Of a stretch of 64,000 bases of DNA, positions 5,640 through 18,644 are shown one piece after another (within the stretch, counting starts at the first letter, position 1; each line of letters begins with the position of its first letter). The position numbers and the translations under genes are program-made. This DNA is from Gemmiger formicilis (lineage in GTDB: Bacteria > Bacillota_I > Bacilli_A > RFN20 > CAG-826): assembly GCA_963626345.1 (NCBI GenBank), contig CAVFXI010000017.1, positions 14,149 through 78,148 of the forward strand, read 5' to 3'. The notes beneath the pieces were generated by a model. It worked only from the letters and a program-made list of their open reading frames with translations, was not told the origin of the DNA and did not search any database.

Positions 5640-5644
5640 AAAAA

Positions 5645-5675
5645 TAAAAGCGCATAAATCATGCGCTTTTATTTT
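5645..5675. terminator. bidirectional intrinsic terminator between the zinc-ribbon gene and ybaK
   Basis: The hairpin AAGCGCAT-AAATC-ATGCGCTT is flanked by an A-run on one side and a T-run on the other. Confidence 0.6.
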
Positions 5676-6139
5676 GTAATATCCTCAAAAGTACATGGTA
5701 TAACTTTTGAGATATCTTCAACATTAATTTCGATTACTTCATTTACTTTTCCAGCACTGAAATAGATCGACTCATAATTTTTAGCAGAAATATCAAAAAC
5801 AGTTTTAAATTGCTTTTTCATTCCAATTGGGGAACAGCCTCCATGTATATAACCGGTTGTTTTTAATAAATCCTTTAATGGAAGCATCTCAATATTTTTC
5901 TCATTAACAACTTTAGCAGCTTTTTTAAGGTCCAAAGTTTTAGGTGCAGGAATGCAAAAAACATAATTCATATGTGATTTTCCAACGGTAACAAGTGTCT
6001 TAAAATCTTTTTCAGGATCTAAATTTAGATTTTTACAAATTACTTCTGCAGATACAAAAGGCTCACTTGTACATTCCAAGAAATTGTATTTTATTTTTGC
6101 TTTATCTAAAATTCTCATTACATTTGTTTTGTTTTCCAT
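5669..6139 (-). CDS. ybaK: Cys-tRNA(Pro)/Cys-tRNA(Cys) deacylase YbaK
   Basis: 156 aa with a typical YbaK/EbsC N-terminus (KTNVMRILDKAKIKY) and a GGCSPIG motif. Confidence 0.8.
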   Translation of the reverse strand: MENKTNVMRILDKAKIKYNFLECTSEPFVSAEVICKNLNLDPEKDFKTLVTVGKSHMNYVFCIPAPKTLDLKKAAKVVNEKNIEMLPLKDLLKTTGYIHGGCSPIGMKKQFKTVFDISAKNYESIYFSAGKVNEVIEINVEDISKVIPCTFEDITK

Positions 6140-6290: not shown

Positions 6291-6485
6291 TTAGTTCTCT
6301 TTAGTTGATTTATTGAGGGTTCGATATGCTCTAGCGCTCATTCTAACCTTATAAGGTTTTCCATCAATAAGTATTTGATATGTATGTAAATTAACATTCC
6401 ATCTTCTACGTGATGTTCTTAAACTGTGTGATCTTGTATTTCCAGATAATGGACCTTTACCTGTAATAGGACATACTCTTGACAT
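6291..6485 (-). CDS. rpmB: 50S ribosomal protein L28
   Basis: 64 aa. MSRVCPITGKGPLSGNTRSHSLRTSRRRWNVNL is the canonical L28 sequence. AGGAGG RBS. Confidence 0.95.
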   Translation of the reverse strand: MSRVCPITGKGPLSGNTRSHSLRTSRRRWNVNLHTYQILIDGKPYKVRMSARAYRTLNKSTKEN

Positions 6486-6669: not shown

Positions 6670-6678
6670 TGATATAAT
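6670..6678 (+). promoter_or_regulatory. candidate extended -10 promoter element (TGATATAAT) upstream of the jetA-like gene
   Basis: TGnTATAAT lies 30 nt upstream of ATG 6708. Only a weak -35 (TTTTTA) is seen. This is a sequence-only call. Confidence 0.3.
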
Positions 6679-6707: not shown

Positions 6708-8141
6708 ATGGATTTATTTGATATATTGCCTTCGAATTATTTCTCGATTTTTGCCGGAAAAAATCGAGCTATATACGCAGAAAGTCTTGTTGTACTTTTT
6801 GAGCTTTTACAAAACGATGAAGCTTTGATTAATAAACAAGATTATTTAAAAGCCTTAAAAGATAAGAATGCCTCTGTTGTAGAAAAATTTGATTATACTG
6901 AAGAAGAAATTGATGATTTAGATGATAGTGACGAGGCTTTGGTTGGGTCATCAGTTAGCAATAAAGCCGCTTTTATTATTAGAAGACTTGAAGAAACTGG
7001 TTGGATTAATGTCGCAATTGATCCAGAAAGTTTTGAAGAGACAATTGTTTTGCCACAATATTCGATCGCTTTATTGAAATCATTTAATGAAATTATTACA
7101 GATGAAACTGCACCTTATCTTTCTTTGGTTCATTCAACTTATAGTGAACTTAAAGTAGAAGACGAAGAGCCAGATGAATTAATGTATGCTACTTTAGTAA
7201 GATGTTACCAAAATACAAAGAAACTCAAAGTTGAGTTAATTACTTTAATTCATTCTATTCGTATTTTCCAAACTAGACTTGGTAAAACATTTGATACAAA
7301 TACAGTTTTACATTCTTATTTTGATGTTTATAAAACTAAAATTAGTGATAGATATTATCACCCATTAAAAACTTTTGATAGTGTTGCCAAATTTAAAAGA
7401 CCAATTATTAAAATTTTAGAAAAATGGATTTCAAATAAAGAATTGAGAGAAAAACTTGTTTCGCAGGCTGCTTTAAGCGCTTCAAATAATAACAAAAAAG
7501 AAATTGAAAGAGATGTTATTGAAAGAATTAATTATATTACTGATACTTATGAAACAATTAATGAATTAATTTCGTCAATTGATAAAGAGAATAGTGCTTA
7601 TACAAAGAGTAGTGCTAGTAAGATTCTTTACCTCAATAATACTGATAGAACAATCAAAGGTCATCTTGAAAATATATTTAAATCTTACGCAAAGAACACC
7701 TCAAATGGTCGTGAATTAGCAAAGATTTTATCTATGATGCAAGATTGTTCAGGTTTTTCAGAACAAGGATATATTGATAGTGAATCGGTTTCATTACCAC
7801 TTTTAAGAAAGTTTAAATTTGATGGAACTCCTCTTGAAATTGTTAATTTTGACGATGCTAGCCAATTTATCATGGACAATTTCTTAGAAGAAACCAAAAA
7901 CATTTATACTGATGAAAGAATTTATGAGTTTATGGAAAAAGCTTTTGGAAGCGATAAAGATTTGAAAACAAAAGATATTTTGCTTCCAAATTTTGATGCG
8001 TTTATTTGTTTAATTTTAGCAACAATCAAGAAAGATGATGAAAGTTGTTTCTATACTGTCGAAATTGTTGATGATGGAAAGATTAAAAATGGAGATTATA
8101 TTATTCCAAACTTGATTTTCCATAGAAAGGAAGCTAACTAA
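6708..8141 (+). CDS. jetA: JetA/MksF-like (kleisin-like) subunit of an SMC-family complex; assigned by size, order and coupling rather than by motif
   Basis: 477 aa and first in a tightly coupled trio. It has an acidic linker (EEEIDDLDDSDE) after an N-terminal helical domain. Size and position equal those of JetA/MksF. I can recognise no catalytic motif. Confidence 0.5.
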   Translation: MDLFDILPSNYFSIFAGKNRAIYAESLVVLFELLQNDEALINKQDYLKALKDKNASVVEKFDYTEEEIDDLDDSDEALVGSSVSNKAAFIIRRLEETGWINVAIDPESFEETIVLPQYSIALLKSFNEIITDETAPYLSLVHSTYSELKVEDEEPDELMYATLVRCYQNTKKLKVELITLIHSIRIFQTRLGKTFDTNTVLHSYFDVYKTKISDRYYHPLKTFDSVAKFKRPIIKILEKWISNKELREKLVSQAALSASNNNKKEIERDVIERINYITDTYETINELISSIDKENSAYTKSSASKILYLNNTDRTIKGHLENIFKSYAKNTSNGRELAKILSMMQDCSGFSEQGYIDSESVSLPLLRKFKFDGTPLEIVNFDDASQFIMDNFLEETKNIYTDERIYEFMEKAFGSDKDLKTKDILLPNFDAFICLILATIKKDDESCFYTVEIVDDGKIKNGDYIIPNLIFHRKEAN

Positions 8142-8142
8142 T

Positions 8143-8832
8143 ATGTTTGAAGAAGAATTTATTAAAATACCTGTAGCTGATCAACGTGAATTTTCACATG
8201 TTGTGAATGTATTGCTTTTAAAAGGTTTTGTGGTTAGAGATATGTTTGATGCTCGTGAGAAAATGATGAGAACCAATCCTAACTACCGTTTTATTGAACG
8301 TTATTTTAACCTTATTGAAGATTATCTTAAATATAGTGGTTGGCACATTGAAAAAGATGTTGTTAGTGGTGTAATTTGTTTATCTAACGATTATGAAGAA
8401 AATAGATTGAGACTCGATAGAGAAACGAGTTTGCTTTTATTCACGCTTCGTTTAATTTTTGAAGATGAGAAAAAAGAAGGTTCTCAAACTAATGATGCAA
8501 TCTATATCACAACACCTGGTCTTATAAAAACCATGTTTGAACATGGAATTACCATGCCTGGAAAGAAGTTAAGTGGAAGACAAATTTCTAAGTCTTTAAG
8601 ATTTTTAGCAAATCACAATATTATTTCAAAAGTTAGTGGAAGTTATGATGAAGGAAACGTTAGTTTCTATATTCTTCCATCAATTGTTTATGCTCTTGAT
8701 AACAATAAGATTGTTGCTATGAGCGAAGCGTTAGACAAAATTAATAATCAAGGACTTGAAAATACTGCTTTAGGCAGAGAAGAAAACAAGGAGGATAGTT
8801 ATGAAGACTATAACCAAAATAAGAATAATTAA
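8143..8832 (+). CDS. jetB: JetB/MksE-like (KITE, DUF4194-like) subunit
   Basis: 229 aa, starting 1 nt after the jetA-like stop. The size and helix-rich tandem winged-helix-like pattern (..VVNVLLLKGFVVRD.., ..SLRFLANHNIISKV..) fit MksE/JetB. The C-terminal tail is acidic. Confidence 0.5.
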   Translation: MFEEEFIKIPVADQREFSHVVNVLLLKGFVVRDMFDAREKMMRTNPNYRFIERYFNLIEDYLKYSGWHIEKDVVSGVICLSNDYEENRLRLDRETSLLLFTLRLIFEDEKKEGSQTNDAIYITTPGLIKTMFEHGITMPGKKLSGRQISKSLRFLANHNIISKVSGSYDEGNVSFYILPSIVYALDNNKIVAMSEALDKINNQGLENTALGREENKEDSYEDYNQNKNN

Positions 8833-11800
8833 TTGGCATTATTTTTGGAATGAAACTATTGATGTTAAACCAATTGTTTTCTTAACCGGTGTTAATGGTA
8901 GCGGTAAATCAACATTAATTGATGCTATTGAAGTTGTTTTACTTGGCGATACAAGTGGTAGAAGTTTTAATAAAGCTGCTATGGAAAAATCAAGCCGTAC
9001 TTTAAGGGGATATTTAAGAGGAGAAATTGGCGACGATGTTGATAATAACGGATTTAAATATCTTCGTAACGGAAGATTTACTTCTTATATAGTTTTAGAA
9101 ATTTATGATGATGTGAACAAAGAATATTCACTTATGGGTATTGTTTTTGATTCGTTTGAAGATGGTAGTGAAGAACATCATTTCTTCTCTGTTGATGATA
9201 AGATGCCAGAGAATGGATTCGTTGAAAATAAATTACCTTTAGACTATAAACGTTTAAATCAATTCTTAAGCGAAAACTATTCTGGAAAATACCAATTCTT
9301 TGATAGCAATAGACAATATCAAGATTTCTTAAAACGTAAATTTGGCGGATTAAAAGATAAATATTTCAGTCTTTTAAAGAAATCAACATCATTTACCCCA
9401 ATTACAGATATCACGTCATTTATTACACAATATGTTTGTGATCCTCAACAAAATATTGAATTGGGTCATCTTCAAAGCAACATTTTGAATTATAAGAGAC
9501 TTGAAAATGAAGCTGAAAATATTAAAAAACGTGTTGATAGATTAACAGAAATTAAAAATTTATACGATTTATATAAAGCTCATCAAGATAATTTCCAAAT
9601 TTCAAAATATATTATTGAAAAATGTGAACTTGAATCTAGTAAACAAAAGCTTGGTGCGTATAAAGATGAAGTTTTAAAATGCTCTCAAAGAATTCGTGAA
9701 ATTGAATTAGGAATTGCTGAATTTAATGGAAATTTAGCTGAACTTGAAAAACGTAGATTAAGAATTATCCAAGATAAAGCTGATAATGATACAATCCGTT
9801 TAACAGATGAACTTTTGAGCGAAAAGAAAGATGCTGAAGAAAAGATTAAATCAATTCAAAGAGATCAAGATATTGTTACACAAAATCTTACAAAATATTG
9901 TGATGAATATTTGGTTGCTACAACTAATCTCACAAATGAATTAAGTGCGATAAATAAGGATATTTTGGATGAAGATCGTGTTAGAGAACTAATTGATCTT
10001 GAACACGAGGCAATTAAAGTTAAAGATCTTTGCGAAAGCTTCAAAAAAGAAGAACTTAAAAATGTTGCGAATTTAACTAAAGAAAAACTTGAAAACTTTA
10101 GAGTTGTTTTAACATCTTTCAAAAATAAAGTTTCTTCATTATCTGTTTCATTAAGTCGTTCTGTTTTCAATATTGAAAAGAAAATTGCAACTTTAAGAGA
10201 TGATGAGGTCAATATTAAAAAGGGAAGTAAATCTTACGATCAAAGACTTGTTAAAATCAAACATCGTTTAGAAGATGAATTATATGATAAGTATCATAAG
10301 CATATTGATGTTGATATTTTTGCAGATTTGATTGATATAAAAGATTTAAGTTGGAGTAACGCAATTGAAGGTTTCCTTTATGGACAAAAATTCAATTTAT
10401 TTGTTGAACCAAAATATTTCTTGGATGCATATAAAATCTTAAGAAATTTATTACTTGAATATAGATATTATGGAACAAGTTTAGTTGATCAAGAGAGAAT
10501 AATTGAAAAGAATTATGTTGCTCAAAATGGTAGTTTAGCAGATGAAATTATTACCGATCATGAAGGTGCTAGAGCTTATACAAATTATTTAATTGGTCGA
10601 TTATATAAAGCAAACTCCATTGAAGAAGCAAGAAATACCATGAATGGTATTACTAAAAATTGTGATTTATATCGTAATTTTGCTCTTCAACAAATTAATC
10701 CAAAACTTTATCAAGAATCATTCATTGGTCGTACATTAGATCAACGTTTCTTAGAAGAAAAAGGGAAAGAATTAGCTGCTAATATCAAAAACTTAGAAGT
10801 TTATAAAAAGATTAGCGTTTTAATTAATAAAGCTAATGAACTTGAAGTTATTAATACAAACGAAATTGCAAATAACTTCGTTTTAATTGAACGTTCTACA
10901 CAAATTAAAGGTTTAGAAAACACAATTAAATATGTTGAGGACCAACTTAAAGAACACGACACAACTTTAATTGAATCACTTGATAAACGTTTAAAGGATG
11001 TCGAACAAGATATTAAAGATTTGAATGAAAATAAAGAACAATCCTTAATTGAAAAGGGTAATCTTGAAAAAGAAATCGAAAACTTAAAGAAAGAAAAGAT
11101 TGTTCAAGAAGAAAATTCAATTAAAGTAAAAGAAGATAATTTAAAGAATAACTACGATCCATTCATGGTTGATGAAAAAGCTCTTCCTATTTTTAATGAA
11201 GAACTTGAAAAAGGAAAGACTGTTCTTCAAATTTATCAAGAAAACAATGTTAACCTTTCTCGTTTACAATACCTTGTAAATAATATTTTTGGTCAAGTTA
11301 GGGTTTTAAGAAGAGATTATGTTAATGACTACCATCTTTCTTATGATCCTGCTGATGAAAATAATGATAAATATGAAGCTGAACTCGTTGAATTTAGAGA
11401 TGTTGAACTTCCTCAATATCAAGAAAAAATCAATGATAGTTATAATAAAGCAATTCAACAATTTAAGGATGACTTTATCTTTAAATTAAGAAGTGCAATT
11501 GAAGATGTTGAAGATCAAATTGAAAACTTAAATACAGCTTTAGCTCAATCTCAATTTGGTAAAGATTCTTATAGATTCACTGTTAAACCAAGTCAAGTTT
11601 ATCGTAGATATTATGATATGCTTAAAGATGATTTAATTTTGGAAAGTGGCGAAGATGAAACTGAGTTTATCAATAAATATAAAGATGTCATGGAAGATTT
11701 GTTTAAGCAAATCGTCGATATTAATGATAAGGGCGATAAAACAAGCGAATTAATGTCCAACATTGAAAAGTTCACTGATTATCGAAGTTATCTCGACTTT

Positions 11801-12178
11801 GACTTGATTGTTACCAACATTGACACAAAAGATGAGCAAAGACTTTCAAAGATGTTAAAGAAGAAATCTGGTGGTGAAACTCAAACCCCATTCTACATTA
11901 GTGTTCTTTCTTCTTTTGCTCAACTTTATCATGTTCACGAAGAAGGTGAGCTTGCAAATACAATTCGTATTATAATATTTGATGAAGCATTCTCTAAAAT
12001 GGATAGAAATAGAATTAAAGAAGCTGTCCGTTTATTAAGAAAATTCAATTTACAGGTCATTTTAAGTGCTCCAAGCGACAAGGTTGCTGATATTAGCGAA
12101 CTTGTTGATGAAACACTTGTAACTTTACACGACAAAAACAGCAGTTGCGTAAGGCTATATGAAAAAAGGCAAAAATAG
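8801..12178 (+). CDS. jetC: JetC/MksB-like SMC-family ATPase
   Basis: 1125 aa.
- Walker A is G30-T38 (GVNGSGKST).
- Long charged coiled-coil arms.
- Central hinge-like segment with W518-x-x-A-I-E-G-F-L.
- Signature S1023-GGE.
- Walker B is IRIIIFD1061-E1062-AFSKMD.
- The ATG overlaps the jetB-like gene by 32 nt and has AAGGAGGA 8 nt upstream. Confidence 0.8.
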   Translation: MKTITKIRIINWHYFWNETIDVKPIVFLTGVNGSGKSTLIDAIEVVLLGDTSGRSFNKAAMEKSSRTLRGYLRGEIGDDVDNNGFKYLRNGRFTSYIVLEIYDDVNKEYSLMGIVFDSFEDGSEEHHFFSVDDKMPENGFVENKLPLDYKRLNQFLSENYSGKYQFFDSNRQYQDFLKRKFGGLKDKYFSLLKKSTSFTPITDITSFITQYVCDPQQNIELGHLQSNILNYKRLENEAENIKKRVDRLTEIKNLYDLYKAHQDNFQISKYIIEKCELESSKQKLGAYKDEVLKCSQRIREIELGIAEFNGNLAELEKRRLRIIQDKADNDTIRLTDELLSEKKDAEEKIKSIQRDQDIVTQNLTKYCDEYLVATTNLTNELSAINKDILDEDRVRELIDLEHEAIKVKDLCESFKKEELKNVANLTKEKLENFRVVLTSFKNKVSSLSVSLSRSVFNIEKKIATLRDDEVNIKKGSKSYDQRLVKIKHRLEDELYDKYHKHIDVDIFADLIDIKDLSWSNAIEGFLYGQKFNLFVEPKYFLDAYKILRNLLLEYRYYGTSLVDQERIIEKNYVAQNGSLADEIITDHEGARAYTNYLIGRLYKANSIEEARNTMNGITKNCDLYRNFALQQINPKLYQESFIGRTLDQRFLEEKGKELAANIKNLEVYKKISVLINKANELEVINTNEIANNFVLIERSTQIKGLENTIKYVEDQLKEHDTTLIESLDKRLKDVEQDIKDLNENKEQSLIEKGNLEKEIENLKKEKIVQEENSIKVKEDNLKNNYDPFMVDEKALPIFNEELEKGKTVLQIYQENNVNLSRLQYLVNNIFGQVRVLRRDYVNDYHLSYDPADENNDKYEAELVEFRDVELPQYQEKINDSYNKAIQQFKDDFIFKLRSAIEDVEDQIENLNTALAQSQFGKDSYRFTVKPSQVYRRYYDMLKDDLILESGEDETEFINKYKDVMEDLFKQIVDINDKGDKTSELMSNIEKFTDYRSYLDFDLIVTNIDTKDEQRLSKMLKKKSGGETQTPFYISVLSSFAQLYHVHEEGELANTIRIIIFDEAFSKMDRNRIKEAVRLLRKFNLQVILSAPSDKVADISELVDETLVTLHDKNSSCVRLYEKRQK

Positions 12179-12209
12179 TTAATAATATTTCTAAGGAAGG
12201 AGAAATTAT

Positions 12210-13343
12210 ATGGCTAAAAAAGTTGTTGCGATGATTCTTGCTGGTGGAAAGGGTACGCGTCTTCAAGCATTGACAAAGAAGATTGCTAAACCTGCGGTTT
12301 ATTTTGGAGGGAAATATCGTATTATCGATTTTAGTCTTTCCAATGTTGCCAACACTGGTATCTCCCTTTGTGGAGTTTTAACTCAATATGAGTCTGTTGC
12401 TTTAAACAATTATATTGGGGATGGGGAAAAATGGGGCTTTAACGGAGTCCAATCTCTTTGTGTTGCTCTTCCTCCACGTCAAACTGAAGAAGGTTTGAAC
12501 TGGTATGAAGGAACTGCCGATGCAATCTATCAAAATCTTGATTTCTTAGATGGTCAAGATCCAGATTATGTATTAATTTTGTCAGGAGATCATATCTATA
12601 AAACTACTTATAATGAAATGATTGAACTCCATGAGAAAAATAATGCAGCTTGTACAATTAGCGTTATTGAAGTTGATTGGAAAGAGGCTTCAAGATTTGG
12701 TATTTTGGAAGTTGGAGACAATGATAAAATTACAAAATTCGTTGAAAAACCAAAAGAACCAAAATCAAATTTAGCTTCTATGGGTGTCTACATTTTCAAT
12801 TATAAAGAACTTAGAAAAGCTCTTGTTGAAGATCATAAGGATCCAAAGAGTGAACACGATTTTGGAAAGAACATTATTCCAAGTTTCTTAGCTCAAGATA
12901 AGCCAATCTATGCATATAGATTTAAAGGATATTGGAGAGACGTTGGAACTTTACAAAGTTTACATTTAGCAAATATGGAACTTTTACCATCAAAGAGAAA
13001 TAGCGATACTATTGATTTTGATGAATTCCCAACAATTTATTCTGAAGATACTCACTCACAACCACAATTTATTGCAAGTGATGGTGTAGTTAAAGATTGT
13101 TTAGTTAACCAAGGCGCTGTAATTCATGGCGATGTTTACCAATGTGTTATTTCTAATGAAGTAATTGTTGAAAAAGGTGCTATTGTTAAAAATAGTGTTT
13201 TGATGCCAGGTGTTACAATTAGCAAAGATGCCTATGTAAATAATGCAATTATTTCTCCAGGAACTACTATTAAAGAAAAAGAAGTTATAAATAAAGATAG
13301 CAATGATGTTGTATTAATCGACTACGAAAGGAGTTTACAATAA
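12210..13343 (+). CDS. glgC: glucose-1-phosphate adenylyltransferase
   Basis: N-terminal LAGGKGTRL, plus PAVYFGGKYRIIDF and a left-handed beta-helix C-terminus. RBS is AAGGAAGGAG. Confidence 0.95.
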   Translation: MAKKVVAMILAGGKGTRLQALTKKIAKPAVYFGGKYRIIDFSLSNVANTGISLCGVLTQYESVALNNYIGDGEKWGFNGVQSLCVALPPRQTEEGLNWYEGTADAIYQNLDFLDGQDPDYVLILSGDHIYKTTYNEMIELHEKNNAACTISVIEVDWKEASRFGILEVGDNDKITKFVEKPKEPKSNLASMGVYIFNYKELRKALVEDHKDPKSEHDFGKNIIPSFLAQDKPIYAYRFKGYWRDVGTLQSLHLANMELLPSKRNSDTIDFDEFPTIYSEDTHSQPQFIASDGVVKDCLVNQGAVIHGDVYQCVISNEVIVEKGAIVKNSVLMPGVTISKDAYVNNAIISPGTTIKEKEVINKDSNDVVLIDYERSLQ

Positions 13344-13344
13344 T

Positions 13345-14469
13345 ATGAATAATGTAATTGCTCTTATTGATTTACATAATCAATCAAATTTAGGTTTATT
13401 AACAAAAAATCGTCCAATTGCTTCAACTACTTATCTTGGTCGTTATGCATTTATTGATTTTACTTTATCAAATTTAACCAATAGTGGTGTTGATGAAATT
13501 GGTATCTTAGTTAGAGATCATAGTCGTTCGATCATTAAACATCTTGGTGGTAAAAATACTTACTTAAGAAATCCAAAAACTGGATTCCAAAATATTTTCC
13601 TTAATGAAAAAGGGTTATTAAATCCTCAATTAAATACAGATATTCATAATATTATCGAAAATGATTGGTTCTTGTATGATTCCAATGTTAAATATGTCGT
13701 AATTTGCCCAGTTAATTTTATTGGTCATGTCGACTATAACAAAGTTATTGAAGAACATATTAAAGCAAATCGTCAAATGAGTTGCTTAGTTGCAAATGTT
13801 GAAAATGCTGATGATCCATCTTTATATCGTGCAATGCGTTGTGTTGTTGATCCAATAGGTGATGTTCAAAAATTCGAAACAAACGATTGCAGAACTAAAA
13901 AAGCAACAATTTGTCTTGAAGTTTATGTTTTTAATGTTGATTACTTAAAAGAAATTTTAAAGAAAGCTGATGATATTTCGCAAATGTTTACCATCAATGA
14001 TTTAGTTAAGTATTTATCAACATATATTGAAAAAGTTAATGCAATTGAACATAAAGGTGAATTTAGAAGAATTGCAAGTTTAAGTGACTATTTCAATGTT
14101 TCTATGGAAAGTATCGATAATCATAAACTTATGACTGAAACTTTATTCCCAGAAGATTGGCCAATCTATACATTAACTCATGATACACGTCCAGTTTTAT
14201 ATGGTGAAAAATGTAAAGTTAGCAATTCTTTAATTGCTAATGGTTGTACAATCAATGGAACTGTTAAGCATTCGGTTTTATCACGTGATGTTATTGTTGA
14301 AGAAGGCGCAACTGTTGAAAATTGCGTTGTATTTACCAACACTGTTGTTAAAAAAGGTGTTCACCTTAAAAATTGTGTTGTTGATAAACATTGTGTTTTC
14401 GAAACTAAGAAAGATGTTGAAGGAACAAAAGAAGAACCATTATATATCCCACAAGGAGCTCATATTTAG
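13345..14469 (+). CDS. glgD: glucose-1-phosphate adenylyltransferase regulatory subunit GlgD
   Basis: A GlgC paralogue lacking the GGxGxRL loop and positioned between glgC and glgA, as in Bacillota. Confidence 0.85.
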   Translation: MNNVIALIDLHNQSNLGLLTKNRPIASTTYLGRYAFIDFTLSNLTNSGVDEIGILVRDHSRSIIKHLGGKNTYLRNPKTGFQNIFLNEKGLLNPQLNTDIHNIIENDWFLYDSNVKYVVICPVNFIGHVDYNKVIEEHIKANRQMSCLVANVENADDPSLYRAMRCVVDPIGDVQKFETNDCRTKKATICLEVYVFNVDYLKEILKKADDISQMFTINDLVKYLSTYIEKVNAIEHKGEFRRIASLSDYFNVSMESIDNHKLMTETLFPEDWPIYTLTHDTRPVLYGEKCKVSNSLIANGCTINGTVKHSVLSRDVIVEEGATVENCVVFTNTVVKKGVHLKNCVVDKHCVFETKKDVEGTKEEPLYIPQGAHI

Positions 14470-14472
14470 ATT

Positions 14473-15912
14473 ATGAATATTGTAATGGTAGCAAGCGAAG
14501 CTAATCCGATATACAAGACTGGTGGTTTAGCAGACGTAATTTATGCTCTTAGCAAACAATTTGCTAAGATGAATCATAATGTTTCAATTATTGTTCCTTA
14601 TTATACGAAATGTGGTAAATATCAAAAACTTAAAGTAAAACCTGTTTTTAAATTAACTACGTCAATGAATTGGCGTAAGTTTGAATTTGAAGTCTTTAAC
14701 GAAGAGATTGATGGAATCGAATATTTCTTCATTAAAAATGATCAATATTTTGATCGACCAAATTATTATGGTTATTATGATGATGGCGAAAGATTTGCAT
14801 TTTTTGCAAATGCTGCAATTGAAGTTTTGAAGGCTTTGCCTTTCAAAGCGGATATTGTTCATGTTCATGATTGGCAACCTGGTATGATTCCATGTTTGCT
14901 TAAAGAAAAATATAAAGACGAAGAATCATTAAAAGGAATAAAAACTGTTTTAACAATTCATAATCCTTTATTTAAAGGATATATAGGAAGTGGTTCTTTA
15001 TGGGATTTATATGGATTACCATTTAATTTATATGAGAATGGTAATGTTCAGTTTGAAAATCAAGTCTCTACTTTAAAAGCTGCAATTCATTATGCTGATA
15101 AGATTTCTACTGTTTCACCAACTCATGCTTATGAACTTACAACTCCAGAAGGAAGTAAAGGTTTATGGTATGAAATGGTTTTAAGAAAATATGATTTTGA
15201 AGGTATCTTAAACGGCATGGATTATGGAGAATTCAATCCAGCAAAAGATAAATCGATTTATAAAGAATATTCGGTAGATAACGCTCTTGAAGGCAAAAAA
15301 GCTAATAAAGTAGCATTTTGTAAAGAGCATGGGTTAGATCCAAAACTTCCAATGTTTGCTGTAGTTTCAAGATTGACAAATCAAAAAGGTTTGGATTTGA
15401 TGTTCTCCATGGCTGATTTTGTTACGAATAATGGCGGTATTTTTGCTGTTTTAGGTAGTGGCGAAAAATATGCTGAAGATTTCTTTGATAACTTGATTAG
15501 AAGAAACCCAAAACATACTTATGTATATATTGGATATAATGATGATATTGCTCATAAACTTTATGCGGCTAGCGATTTCTTCATCATGCCAAGTGCTTTT
15601 GAACCATGCGGGTTAGGCCAAATGATTGCTCAAAGATATGGAAGTCTTCCAATTGTTAGAAGAACAGGTGGTCTTAAAGACAGTGTCGCGCCATACAATA
15701 TTGAGCTTCATAACGAAAAAACTGCTGATGGATTTGGCTTTGAAAATTATAATGTTATTGATGCAATTGGTTGTTGTTCAAGTGCAATGATTGTTTATAA
15801 CGAAAAGAAAATTCTTAAGTCAATGGTCACTAATGCTATGAAGAGAGATAATACATGGGCTAAGAGCGCTGAAAAATATATCGAACTTTATGAAGGCGCT
15901 TTAAAAAAGTAA
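14473..15912 (+). CDS. glgA: glycogen synthase (ADP-glucose type)
   Basis: N-terminal MVASEANPIYKTGGLADV (KTGGL motif). GT5 C-terminal EPCGLGQM. Confidence 0.95.
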   Translation: MNIVMVASEANPIYKTGGLADVIYALSKQFAKMNHNVSIIVPYYTKCGKYQKLKVKPVFKLTTSMNWRKFEFEVFNEEIDGIEYFFIKNDQYFDRPNYYGYYDDGERFAFFANAAIEVLKALPFKADIVHVHDWQPGMIPCLLKEKYKDEESLKGIKTVLTIHNPLFKGYIGSGSLWDLYGLPFNLYENGNVQFENQVSTLKAAIHYADKISTVSPTHAYELTTPEGSKGLWYEMVLRKYDFEGILNGMDYGEFNPAKDKSIYKEYSVDNALEGKKANKVAFCKEHGLDPKLPMFAVVSRLTNQKGLDLMFSMADFVTNNGGIFAVLGSGEKYAEDFFDNLIRRNPKHTYVYIGYNDDIAHKLYAASDFFIMPSAFEPCGLGQMIAQRYGSLPIVRRTGGLKDSVAPYNIELHNEKTADGFGFENYNVIDAIGCCSSAMIVYNEKKILKSMVTNAMKRDNTWAKSAEKYIELYEGALKK

Positions 15913-15940
15913 AATTTTAAAACTTTAGACTATATCAATA

Positions 15941-15973
15941 AAAGGTCATTTATGAATTTAAATGGCCTTTTTA
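15941..15973 (+). terminator. intrinsic terminator after glgA
   Basis: AAGGTCATTTA-loop-TAAATGGCCTT followed by TTTTT. Confidence 0.55.
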
Positions 15974-16065
15974 AAACCATAAATGACACCTTAAAAGTCA
16001 ACTATGATTGTGGTTATTTATTTGAATTTGTGGTAATATAATTTGGCTAACGTGAACTAATTTAT

Positions 16066-16227
16066 TAAGCGATTTATAGAGAGTTAATGGTTGGTGAAAA
16101 TTAACAATTGCGAAATAAAATCTCATCACAAAAAAGTTAGAAAAAAGAGTGCATTTATTGTTTAATAAATGAATTAAGGTGGTACCGCGTAATTAAACGT
16201 CCTTAAATTGGACGTTTTTGTGTTTTT
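16066..16227 (+). promoter_or_regulatory. T-box leader (Leu specifier) controlling leuS
   Basis: - AGAGA box at 16078-16082.
- Candidate specifier CTC followed by A at 16122-16125.
- T-box core AATTAAGGTGGTACCGCG at 16172-16189. Its UGGU bulge fits a tRNA with an A73 discriminator.
- Terminator AAACGTCC-TTAAATT-GGACGTTT followed by a T-run, 16195-16227. Confidence 0.85.
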
Positions 16228-16241
16228 AAAGGAGAAATGCT

Positions 16242-18644
16242 ATGAGTTACGATTTTATTGCAGTTGAGAAAAAATGGAAAAAGTATTGGATTGACCATAA
16301 GAGTTTCGCTTGTGATACTTATGATTTTAGCAAACCTAAATACTATGTTTTGGATATGTTTCCATATCCATCAGGTGAAGGTTTACATGTTGGTCATCCT
16401 GAAGGTTATACCGCAACTGATGTTGTTGCGCGTATGAAAAGAATGCAAGGATTCAATGTTTTACATCCAATTGGTTGGGATGCTTTTGGTCTTCCTGCAG
16501 AACAATATGCAATGAAGATGAATGAACATCCATGGGGTTTCACTGAGAAAAACATCAACCATTTTAGAGAGCAAATTCAATCATTAGGTTTTTCATATGA
16601 TTATGATAGAGAAGTTACAACTTGCGACCCAACCTACTATAAATGGACTCAATGGATTTTTCTTAAAATGTATGACAAGGGTTTAGCTTATATTGCAAAT
16701 AAACCTGTTAATTTTTGTCCTGCTTTAGGGACTGTTTTGGCTAATGAAGAAGTCATTGATGGTAAATCAGAAAGAGGCGGATTCCCAGTTATTAGAAAGC
16801 CAATGAAACAATGGGTTTTGAAAATTACTGCTTATGCAGATAGACTTGCTAGCGATTTAGAAGATCTTGATTGGCCAAAATCTACTATTGAACTTCAAAG
16901 AAACTGGATTGGGAAATCTAAAGGTACAGTCATTACTTTTAATGTTAAAGGAACTGACAAAACGTTTGAAGTTTTTACAACTAGAGCTGATACTTTATTT
17001 GGTTGTTCATATTGTTGTTTAGCTCCTGAACATCCACTTGTTAAAGAAATTACAACTAAAGAACAAGAAAAAGAAATAAATGAATATATAGAAAAAGCAA
17101 GTTCAAAGAGTGACCTTGATAGAACTGAATTAAATAAAGATAAAACTGGCGTTTTTACTGGAAGTTATGCAATTAATCCAATTAATAATGAAGAAGTTCC
17201 TATTTATATTGCAGATTATGTTTTAGCAAGCTATGGAAGTGGTGCAGTTATGGCCGTTCCAGCTCACGATGAAAGAGATTATGCTTTTGCCAAAAAATAT
17301 AATTTACCAATTAAAAAGGTTATTGAAAGCGATGTTAGCGAAGCTGCTTTTACGGAAGATGGAGTTCATATTAATAGCGATTTCATCAATGGTTTAAATA
17401 TTGCAGATGCTAAAGAAGAAGTTACTTATAAATTAATTGAACTTGGTAAAGGTGATTTTAAAGTTAATTACAAACTTAGAGATTGGTTATTCTCAAGACA
17501 AAGATATTGGGGAGAACCAATTCCAATTTATCATTTTGATGATGGAAGTTTAGGAAGGGTAAAAGATGATGATTTACCACTTGTTTTACCAGAAATGGAT
17601 AAATATGAACCATCTGGAAATGGGGAGTCTCCACTTTCTAGACTTACTGACTGGTTAAATGTTACAGTTGATGGCAAACATGCTTTAAGAGAAACAAATA
17701 CTATGCCTCAATGGGCTGGAAGTTGCTGGTATTTCTTAAGATATATCGATCCACACAATGAAAATGCAATCGCGGATAAAAAACTGTTAGATCATTGGTT
17801 GCCAGTTGATCTTTATGTAGGCGGTCAAGAACACGCTACATTGCATTTACTTTATGCAAGATTTTGGCATAAATTCCTTTATGATGAAGGCGTTGTTAGC
17901 GTTAAAGAACCATTCAAAAAATTATTCCATCAAGGAATGATTTTAGGTGCTAATGGTGAAAAGATGTCTAAATCTAGGGGTAATGTTATTAATCCTGATG
18001 TAGTCGTTAATAAATATGGCGCAGATTCGCTTAGACTTTATGAAATGTTTATGGGACCACTTGAAGCTTCATTACCATGGAGTGATGGTGGACTTGAGGG
18101 TGCAAAGAGATTTATTGATCGTGTTTATAGAATTATTGACACTCCAGAAATGTTTAATAAATTTAAAGACACTAATAGTGGAGAATTAGATTATATTTTC
18201 AATTTTACAGTTAAGAAAGTTACTGAAGATTATGAAAATTTGCAATTTAATACTGCGATTTCACAAATGATGGTTTTTGTAAATGAACTTTATAAAGCAA
18301 AAGAAATTTATAGACCATACTTTGAAGATTTTGTAAAAATGTTTGATTGTGTTTGTCCATTTATGGGTGAAGAAATTTGGAATAAGTTAGGGCATAAAGA
18401 TTTAATTACTTATGAAAAATGGCCAACTTATGATGAAAGCAAACTTGTTTTAAATAAAATTAAGATTGCTGTTCAAGTTAATGGAAAATTAAGAGACACA
18501 ATCGAAATTGAAAAAGATGCGGAAAATAATATTGTTGAAGAAGCTGCATTAAATAGTGAAAACGTTAAGAAAAACATTGATGGTAAGACAATTGTTAAAG
18601 TTATTGTTGTTAAAAATAGAATTGTTAATATAGTGGTGAAATAA
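16242..18644 (+). CDS. leuS: leucine--tRNA ligase
   Basis: 800 aa with HIGH-type [15 protein letters not shown], and a CP1 editing domain. Confidence 0.97.

Follow-up and report, generated by a model that had tools for sequence, protein, structure and literature searches.

In this work we analysed an operon of three genes, jetA, jetB and jetC, in a 64,000-nucleotide stretch of bacterial DNA (contig CAVFXI010000017.1 of assembly GCA_963626345.1, positions 14,149 to 78,148; hereafter the window). The three products belong to the families of the type I Wadjet motor, in which JetC is the structural maintenance of chromosomes (SMC) ATPase, and the gene for the fourth Wadjet component, the nuclease JetD (MksG), is absent from the locus. 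The same nuclease-less operon is found at the same chromosomal position across a clade of related Bacilli, where it is under purifying selection, and its composition is native to the genome in which it resides. We regard jetABC as probably a domesticated, nuclease-free loop extruder working on the host chromosome in the manner of MksBEF and MukBEF, with both the loop extrusion and the chromosomal target proposed by homology to the E. coli Wadjet complex JET and to MukBEF.

The identity of the three products was established by profile searches. JetA matched the Pfam JetA family (PF18982) at 1.3e-92 over model positions 2-434 of 434 and the PADLOC profile JetA1 at 5.3e-121; JetB matched DUF4194 (PF13835) at 5.4e-17 and JetB1 at 4.7e-67; and JetC matched JetC1 over its full length (E = 0, 1093 bits) together with the Pfam families AAA_29 and SbcC_Walker_B. 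NCBIfam holds no specific model for any of the three. By these matches the three open reading frames (ORFs) are the JetA, JetB and JetC of a type I Wadjet, and jetABC is predicted to encode a complete, active motor. An earlier annotation of the window (the original prediction) had called the trio a JetABC/MksFEB operon without nuclease, on which Pfam and PADLOC profiles agree, and had recognised the third ORF as an SMC/MukB-class ATPase from motifs that are indeed all present: Walker A G30-T38 (GVNGSGKST), W518-SNAIEG, S1023-GGE and D1061-E1062. Its view that the A and B subunits were too divergent to be placed except by architecture is contradicted by the matches above. Among the Pfam families that it had put forward DUF4194, AAA_29 and SbcC_Walker_B were recovered, and JetA fell into PF18982 instead of DUF3375 or DUF2397. 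Twelve aligned JetC sequences at 60-99% identity show no variation in the ATPase motifs. Over 75 clade genomes, conservation reaches 97% or more at 250 of the 1125 residues of JetC; the heads and hinge are the best conserved parts and the arms the least. An AlphaFold2 model of JetC, made from the 12-sequence alignment and of moderate confidence (predicted local distance difference test, pLDDT, 65.5; predicted template modelling score, pTM, 0.33), was used for architecture and Foldseek family matches only. It predicts a head half, a helical stretch of about 270 residues, an α/β hinge at about residues 500-645, a second helical stretch of about 270 residues and the other head half, with an antiparallel coiled-coil arm. 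Its best structural matches were Wadjet-II JetC and MukB (E 1e-17 to 1e-18), and the JetC of E. coli and P. aeruginosa also matched. Sequence likeness to solved JET or MukBEF chains was marginal in PDB searches with JetA, JetB, JetC and a JetC profile, the lone match to the JET proteins being 8dk1_C at 5.8e-6.

The distribution of the operon was addressed by scanning one genome per GTDB species with JetC as query. This identified 80 loci, 76 of which belong to the same clade as the window and four to an outgroup; it should be noted that the clade loci were retrieved by JetC itself and that genomes without jetABC would not come back. JetC is 49-99% identical to that of the window in the 76 clade loci, and wherever their contigs reach far enough the order rpmB(-)/jetABC/glgCDA is kept and jetD is absent. 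The rpmB-jetABC-glgC arrangement noted in the original prediction is thus conserved across the clade, with the exception of four loci (L046, L047, L051 and L058) in which glgC is not adjacent. In most clade loci rpmB adjoins jetA, and the gap between jetC and glgC measures 10-143 nt in 65 of the 76 related sequences with both genes. The exact window JetC was not found in the protein database, and a 99% identical protein (P0001) and others were used instead. Contigs with a JetC 99%, 75% or 60% identical to that of the window read jetA-jetB-jetC-glgC-glgD-glgA followed by leuS, tex or coaX, mostly with rpmB(-) upstream, and none of them carries a JetD; two of these contigs measure 1.07-1.08 Mb. 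The protein database holds well over 120 JetC clusters of at least 60% identity, the best 120 listed being filled entirely by the clade; those with a name are metagenome-assembled genomes (MAGs) of "Candidatus Onthovivens", Acholeplasmataceae, Bacilli and Bacillales. The clade consists of uncultured "Ca. Onthovivens"/CAG-826-type Bacilli (also labelled CAG:826 or "Mollicutes"). Labels differ from record to record, and from the names "Coprobacillus sp. CAG:826" and Ca. Onthovivens a placement in GTDB order RFN20, family CAG-826 or close to it, is probable. Some loci of the clade lie on contigs of 1.07-1.48 Mb, which indicate tiny genomes; near-complete assemblies include those of JAKVOO010000001.1 (a single contig of 1.48 Mb), ENA ERZ2606006 NODE_12 (1.08 Mb), JGI Ga0183097_10006 (1.07 Mb), CASEVI010000001.1 and DKCJ01 (UBA6877). 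Peptidoglycan is predicted to be absent from the family CAG-826, and NCBI taxonomy lists Onthovivens as Bacilli incertae sedis. Seven contigs with 60-99% identity (L008-L010, L030, L036, L038 and L078) carry deposited names that include Slackia isoflavoniconvertens, Parabacteroides goldsteinii, Phocaeicola dorei, Bacteroidaceae and Lachnospiraceae; these labels, from "cleanbin" assemblies, are almost certainly wrong for the contigs in question.

The four outgroup loci, with a JetC 38-39% identical to that of the window, come from Caldicoprobacter oshimai, two Clostridia MAGs and one Bacillota MAG. In three of them the gene right after jetC, of 414-427 aa, matches JetD_C (PF09983) at 1e-24 to 1e-28, and the contig of the fourth stops before the JetD position. 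A neighbour-joining tree of JetC, which carries no support values, unites the nuclease-less loci as a monophyletic clade with a long stem and places the window within its crown.

As the original prediction had stated, no JetD follows jetC, and none was detected in the whole window. Pfam searches with the three Jet proteins and 30 further ORFs of the window, each 120 aa or longer, returned no PF09983, PF11795 or PF09664; the families returned for these ORFs are all housekeeping or metabolic (tRNA synthetases, EzrA, IscS/ThiI, transporters and a rhamnose cluster), and most of its other ORFs, including the syntenic neighbours, have precomputed Pfam labels on related contigs. A hidden Markov model (HMM) built from the three outgroup JetDs was run in six frames over the window and 87 fetched loci (1.54 Mb). 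It found nothing below E = 5 in the 64 kb of the window, and in the full 1.54 Mb only its three training sequences scored. The short spacer between jetC and glgC leaves no space for a remnant of the nuclease gene. In the 76 clade genomes no JetD was found within 8-10 kb of jetABC, or less where contigs end sooner, and from the window and these flanks JetD would appear to be gone genome-wide in the clade. In a search of the protein database with a JetD profile, the named sequences among the best 120 matches (at least 39% identity) came from Clostridia and their allies and none came from the clade, which is a weak argument against an unlinked JetD.

Deeper members of the clade, with a JetC 49-57% identical to that of the window, carry an ORF of 282-316 aa between jetC and glgC, the slot occupied by jetD in the outgroup. 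Its product has a basic N-terminus and two transmembrane helices, with a match to DUF3137 (2e-8) in one group, and its three sequence groups are only marginally alike (hhalign probability 8-51%). We considered whether this could be a cryptic JetD and rejected it, the protein being a two-helix membrane protein without a JetD_C domain. A second difference concerns the C-terminus of JetB. All four outgroup JetBs (L083-L086), JetD being verified in three of these loci, share an acidic C-terminal tail in which an [IV]IRG[DE] motif is conserved. The clade JetB tail is variable and without this motif, conservation being 0.17 over residues 201-229 (window positions 8743-8829). In E. coli JET the docking site of JetD, which binds through its aCAP domain, is the "larynx" of JetC (F919), and a contact with a short helix of JetB has been proposed. 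It is tempting to speculate that the outgroup tail motif is a JetD-contact peptide which was lost in the clade.

The mode of evolution of jetABC is that of its housekeeping neighbours. Within the clade, pairwise JetC distances are correlated with the distances between LeuS (r = 0.84, n = 40), GlgC (r = 0.80, n = 69) and GlgA (r = 0.86, n = 62) sequences, each with a Mantel p of 0.001, and JetC evolves at about 1.5 times the rate of LeuS and about as fast as GlgA. Between the window and relatives at a synonymous divergence (dS) of 0.5-0.9, the ratio of nonsynonymous to synonymous substitutions (dN/dS) is 0.03-0.04 for jetA, 0.02-0.07 for jetB and 0.03-0.05 for jetC, compared with 0.04-0.06 for both leuS and glgC. 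A search of 72,556 plasmids identified no close relative of jetABC, the best match being 28-32% identical. Congruent distances, low dN/dS and the lack of a close plasmid copy together show that jetABC behaves as a vertically inherited core gene, unlike a cassette of mobile defence genes or a relic in decay; the patchy spread, variable context and frequent transfer typical of defence systems are not seen in the clade. Composition is native to the genome. The jetABC genes have a GC content of 0.28-0.30, a third-position GC content (GC3) of 0.17-0.20 and a codon-usage distance of 0.15-0.20, the other 41 window genes having 0.298±0.027, 0.172±0.025 and 0.177±0.039, respectively. GC content is flat over the locus, and the only tRNAs of the window lie at 59.7-59.9 kb, about 47 kb from jetABC, so that the absence of island hallmarks noted in the original prediction holds also by measurement.

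These observations suggest a scenario for the origin and the activity of the operon. In the most parsimonious history JetD would have been lost in the ancestor of this clade of small-genome gut Bacilli, and the operon would since have been inherited vertically, fixed between rpmB and glgCDA. A JetA-bridged dimer of JetC2-JetA-JetB2 motors would load on DNA and extrude loops by ATP hydrolysis. Without the JetD nuclease no DNA would be cleaved, which makes a role on the host chromosome the most likely one, and JetABC would act there as a condensin-like organiser or segregation factor, like MksBEF of P. aeruginosa and MukBEF of E. coli. The original prediction had listed a nuclease-free MksBEF-type condensin and a decayed defence system domesticated into a housekeeping operon as separate possibilities. 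The former, with its probable role on the chromosome, fits best when joined to the domestication part of the latter, which is supported by synteny, by a dN/dS like that of leuS, by native composition and by the JetD-bearing outgroups; the word decayed has to be dropped, as none of the three genes is damaged and purifying selection on them is strong. Several points weigh against a chromosomal role. The members of the clade are known from sequence alone, and in certain lineages some defence systems belong to the core genome. The direct search for JetD spans 64 kb here and up to about 20 kb in each relative, so that an unlinked JetD or another effector may exist, and the database search is a weak negative, since a JetD of the clade, if about 35% identical, could fall below the matches listed. 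The tight link is to glycogen genes, for which we know of no tie to chromosome biology. Finally, loop extrusion on the chromosome by a JetABC-type complex is undocumented, even for complexes with the nuclease (PMC10586767).

Four other explanations were weighed. The operon could still be an immunity system, in which JetABC senses small circular DNA by extruding it totally and either passes it to an unlinked effector or holds, compacts or silences it in the manner of Smc5/6. All profiles do call a type I Wadjet, the DNA inspected is limited to the extent given above, and in the deeper clade members a membrane protein sits exactly in the JetD slot. We nevertheless consider this rather unlikely, although it deserves to be kept in mind: 76 genomes show no JetD at the locus or close to it, none of the named sequences among the best 120 JetD matches comes from such organisms while the clade fills the best 120 JetC matches (at least 60% identity), the JetB tail motif of all four outgroups is lost, and defence genes do not typically combine a fixed position with vertical descent and with constraint at the level of housekeeping genes. 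A split Wadjet, moreover, is not described in the published papers searched. In a stronger form of the proposal that we favour, JetABC would be the sole condensin of the lineage, having replaced Smc-ScpAB as MukBEF did in gamma-proteobacteria. The operon is present in every clade genome retrieved, with the proviso that retrieval was by JetC, the genomes are apparently tiny, and the upstream array prkC-rpe-thiN-rpmB(-) is kept in the clade and breaks exactly at jetABC; on the B. subtilis map this array runs on to rnc-smc-ftsY about 12 kb further. We looked for Smc, ScpAB, rnc and ftsY with Pfam on the window ORFs, with Pfam on 5 of the 11 unexplained ORFs of at least 600 aa in the flanks of the 87 loci, and with motif regular expressions; no Smc, ScpA or ScpB was found in the window or flanks, which make up about 5% of any one genome, and no search was aimed at the Smc of the lineage. 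Set against a replacement are this small visible fraction and the general observations that complexes of the MksBEF type are usually found alongside Smc or MukBEF and that other reduced Mollicutes retain Smc-ScpAB, and we hold it to be improbable. If true, it would be an independent and more recent replay of the origin of MukBEF in cell-wall-less gut Bacilli of about 1.1-1.5 Mb, with proteins that are still those of a type I Wadjet and with JetD-bearing relatives at 38-39% identity for direct comparison.

The remaining two explanations have very little left in their favour. Incomplete defence operons are often relics, and the missing nuclease could mark jetABC as a decaying remnant without current function; the ORFs are, however, intact in 76 species genomes, dN/dS over the three genes is 0.02-0.07, the ATPase motifs are invariant and the 250 highly conserved JetC positions have been kept. 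The selection data effectively refute this explanation, and we would give it hardly any weight. The original prediction had also allowed for the third ORF belonging to the RecN, SbcC/Rad50 or Lamassu LmuB families, with the first two ORFs unrelated to kleisin/KITE proteins. JetC does have weak secondary matches, to the PADLOC profile LmuB (3.3e-12) and to a RecF N-terminus (9e-7), and Rad50 structures appear in the Foldseek list at rank 22. These are to be compared with the full-length JetC1 match at E = 0, the full-length profile matches of JetA and JetB, a predicted hinge where Rad50 would have a zinc hook, and top structural matches of the model to JetC and MukB. The candidate was rejected, being refuted by the Pfam and PADLOC matches of the three proteins, and its probability is vanishingly small.

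The features of the locus are collected in Table 1. The ORF positions, sizes and coupling given in the original prediction, and the neighbours that it named on both sides, were all correct when checked on the sequence: jetA and jetB are separated by a single nucleotide, jetB shares its last 32 nt with jetC, AAGGAGGA being placed 5 nt ahead of the jetC ATG, and 31 nt lie between the jetC stop and the glgC start. The glycogen genes are neighbours of the Jet complex and not parts of it. The gene array upstream reads priA...rlmN-prpC-prkC-rpe-thiN-rpmB(-), and glgCDA, leuS, a ytpR-like gene, tyrS, rpsD, ezrA, iscS and thiI lie downstream. Relative to the B. subtilis map, jetABC sits at the junction of two conserved arrays (window positions 5669-33289 together with L007:1-7692).

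Table 1. Features of the jetABC locus. Positions refer to the window unless a related locus (L) is named.
Feature	Position	Strand	Description
YbaK/tRNA_edit gene	5669-6139	-	named from Pfam labels of syntenic genes
rpmB (ribosomal protein L28)	6291-6485	-	divergent upstream anchor; PF00830 on the syntenic gene in relatives
Candidate jetA promoter	6670-6678	+	extended -10 element TGATATAAT, 30 nt before the ATG, in the 222-nt rpmB/jetA intergenic region
jetA	6708-8141	+	477 aa; kleisin subunit, MksF/MukF analogue
jetB	8143-8832	+	229 aa; kleisin-interacting tandem winged-helix element (KITE) subunit, MksE/MukE analogue
jetC	8801-12178	+	1125 aa; SMC ATPase, MksB/MukB analogue
jetC-glgC spacer	12179-12209	+	31 nt; carries the glgC ribosome-binding site
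glgC, glgD, glgA (glycogen synthesis)	12210-15912	+	ORFs; Pfam labels of syntenic genes
Terminator-like hairpin after glgA	15940-15971	+	13-bp stem followed by a T-run
T-box leader (RF00230) of leuS	16038-16207	+	76.7 bits, E = 5.5e-17; below the Rfam gathering score of 93
leuS	16242-18644	+	next gene after glgCDA
282-316 aa ORF of deeper clade members	L045:11421-12335; L062:11430-12347; L067:11441-12307; L072:11397-12254; also L046-L048, L073-L077

A candidate promoter for jetA is provided by the TGATATAAT element, its function being predicted from conservation. The sequence TATG[A/G]TATAAT and a T-rich TTTTTTCTTTTT tract upstream of it are conserved in seven relatives, down to 70% JetC identity, and the intergenic DNA around these elements diverges; an eighth relative (L010) has Ns across the -10 element. 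A scan for consensus promoters was uninformative in the AT-rich window, giving fewer matches than in shuffled sequences, and missed TGATATAAT because its -35 element is weak. The spacer between jetC and glgC showed no significant structure (z = -1.2) and no terminator. The hairpin after glgA has a predicted stability of -14.2 kcal/mol (z = -4.6; none of 200 shuffles as stable) and is the probable 3' end of the jetABC-glgCDA unit. A further hairpin at 16195-16217 was rejected as the terminator of the operon, being that of the putative T-box leader of leuS. The unstructured spacer, the hairpin after glgA and the leader of leuS's own point to co-transcription of jetABC and glgCDA, probably as a single transcript of about 9.3 kb, as judged from spacing and the lack of a terminator between the genes.

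Two differences among close relatives lie upstream of the operon. In L004 (4608-6830) and L005 (70-2292), whose jetC is 99% identical to that of the window, an insertion of about 2.3 kb is found between a zinc-ribbon gene and ybaK, which encodes a 104-aa ORF, a PBECR1 protein (weak match), a DUF4417 protein and an HTH_3 protein and is missing from the window (5640-5668). In these strains ybaK is only 91% identical to that of the window, its neighbours being 99-100% identical, and this divergence together with the insertion points to recombination in this region or to a small cassette with a mobile or defence role. The 1.08-Mb contig L001 carries, at 50-1922 and about 6 kb upstream of jetA, a Methylase_S/phage-integrase/Methylase_S arrangement which has no counterpart in the window and looks like a shufflon for the specificity subunit of a type I restriction-modification system.

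Nuclease-free complexes of the Wadjet group are of a known kind, and the present clade is catalogued though not discussed, as is clear from Data S1 of Bürmann et al. (Cell 2025), which lists such operons, labelled FEB, including one of our clade loci. In that table, 93 FEB and one BEF cluster among 869 Wadjet-group operon clusters (about 11%) are without nuclease, the others including 609 FEBG, 155 GFEB and 11 BEFG, and losses of MksG/JetD are mapped across the group in their Fig. S1A. The FEB entry JAFLUZ010000005.1, 20292-25754 (Erysipelotrichales bacterium), is our clade locus L045, and Anaeroplasma bactoclasticum is also listed as FEB; the genome of the window was not found in the table as far as it was searched. 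The statement in the original prediction that the arrangement is not a well-described one was therefore too strong, 94 of the 869 clusters listed there being nuclease-less. For L045, as for its other entries, the table gives operon structure only. The searched text of Bürmann et al. describes neither clade-wide synteny, vertical descent or selection nor the glgCDA linkage. Among the published papers searched none links MksB or Wadjet with Mollicutes-like Bacilli, and neither in these papers nor in their supplements was anything found on Smc or other condensins in RFN20/Onthovivens genomes.

The conversion of an anti-plasmid SMC nuclease into a chromosome organiser, from which MukBEF and MksBEF are proposed to have arisen, is both an evolutionary and a mechanistic question, and the clade described here offers a natural comparison, combining a species-rich lineage with core jetABC, sister groups which have kept JetD, and a correlated loss of the JetB tail motif. 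In practical terms, operons of this kind in these abundant gut bacteria should be scored by defence annotation neither as immunity nor as relics of an "incomplete Wadjet". The value of the case is limited by the nuclease loss in the Wadjet group being already documented and by the organisms being uncultured. The presence of Smc-ScpAB decides between a routine second condensin and a MukBEF-like replacement, and the interest of the clade would rise sharply if Smc-ScpAB were absent.

When compared to known systems, the operon has the same F-E-B architecture without G as the FEB operons listed in Data S1 of Bürmann et al. With the type I Wadjet JetABCD (E. coli GF4-3 JET and P. aeruginosa PA14; also named MksBEFG or EptABCD) it shares protein families, the order jetA-jetB-jetC and translational coupling, and the predicted SMC fold of its JetC is nearest to JetC and MukB. 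It differs from JetABCD in having no JetD at the locus, as do the 76 related loci, and in a fixed core position where JetABCD has a variable or island context; in sequence it can hardly be matched to the solved JET proteins, and the window JetA belongs to PF18982. P. aeruginosa MksBEF, which coexists with Smc-ScpAB, is likewise a nuclease-free member of the Wadjet group, but it is proteobacterial and distant in sequence. MksBEF is considered to derive from JetABCD, JetD having been lost, and is reported to aid chromosome organisation and segregation, and MukBEF has been proposed to share that history (PMC10586767). MukBEF of E. coli and its relatives is a nuclease-free group member turned housekeeping condensin, and MukB is among the top Foldseek matches of the JetC model. 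In sequence, however, JetA and JetB of the window match the JetA and DUF4194 families, with no MukF or MukE family at E of 1 or below, and the match of JetC to the MukB N-terminal Pfam family is marginal (23.2 bits, cut-off 23). With Smc-ScpAB the operon has in common the SMC/kleisin/KITE architecture and, presumably, loop extrusion. JetC reaches 25.4 bits with SMC_N, which is under the cut-off of 40, JetA and JetB have no ScpA or ScpB match, and the Walker A motif of JetC has a valine and a final threonine where the Smc type reads GPNGSGKSN.

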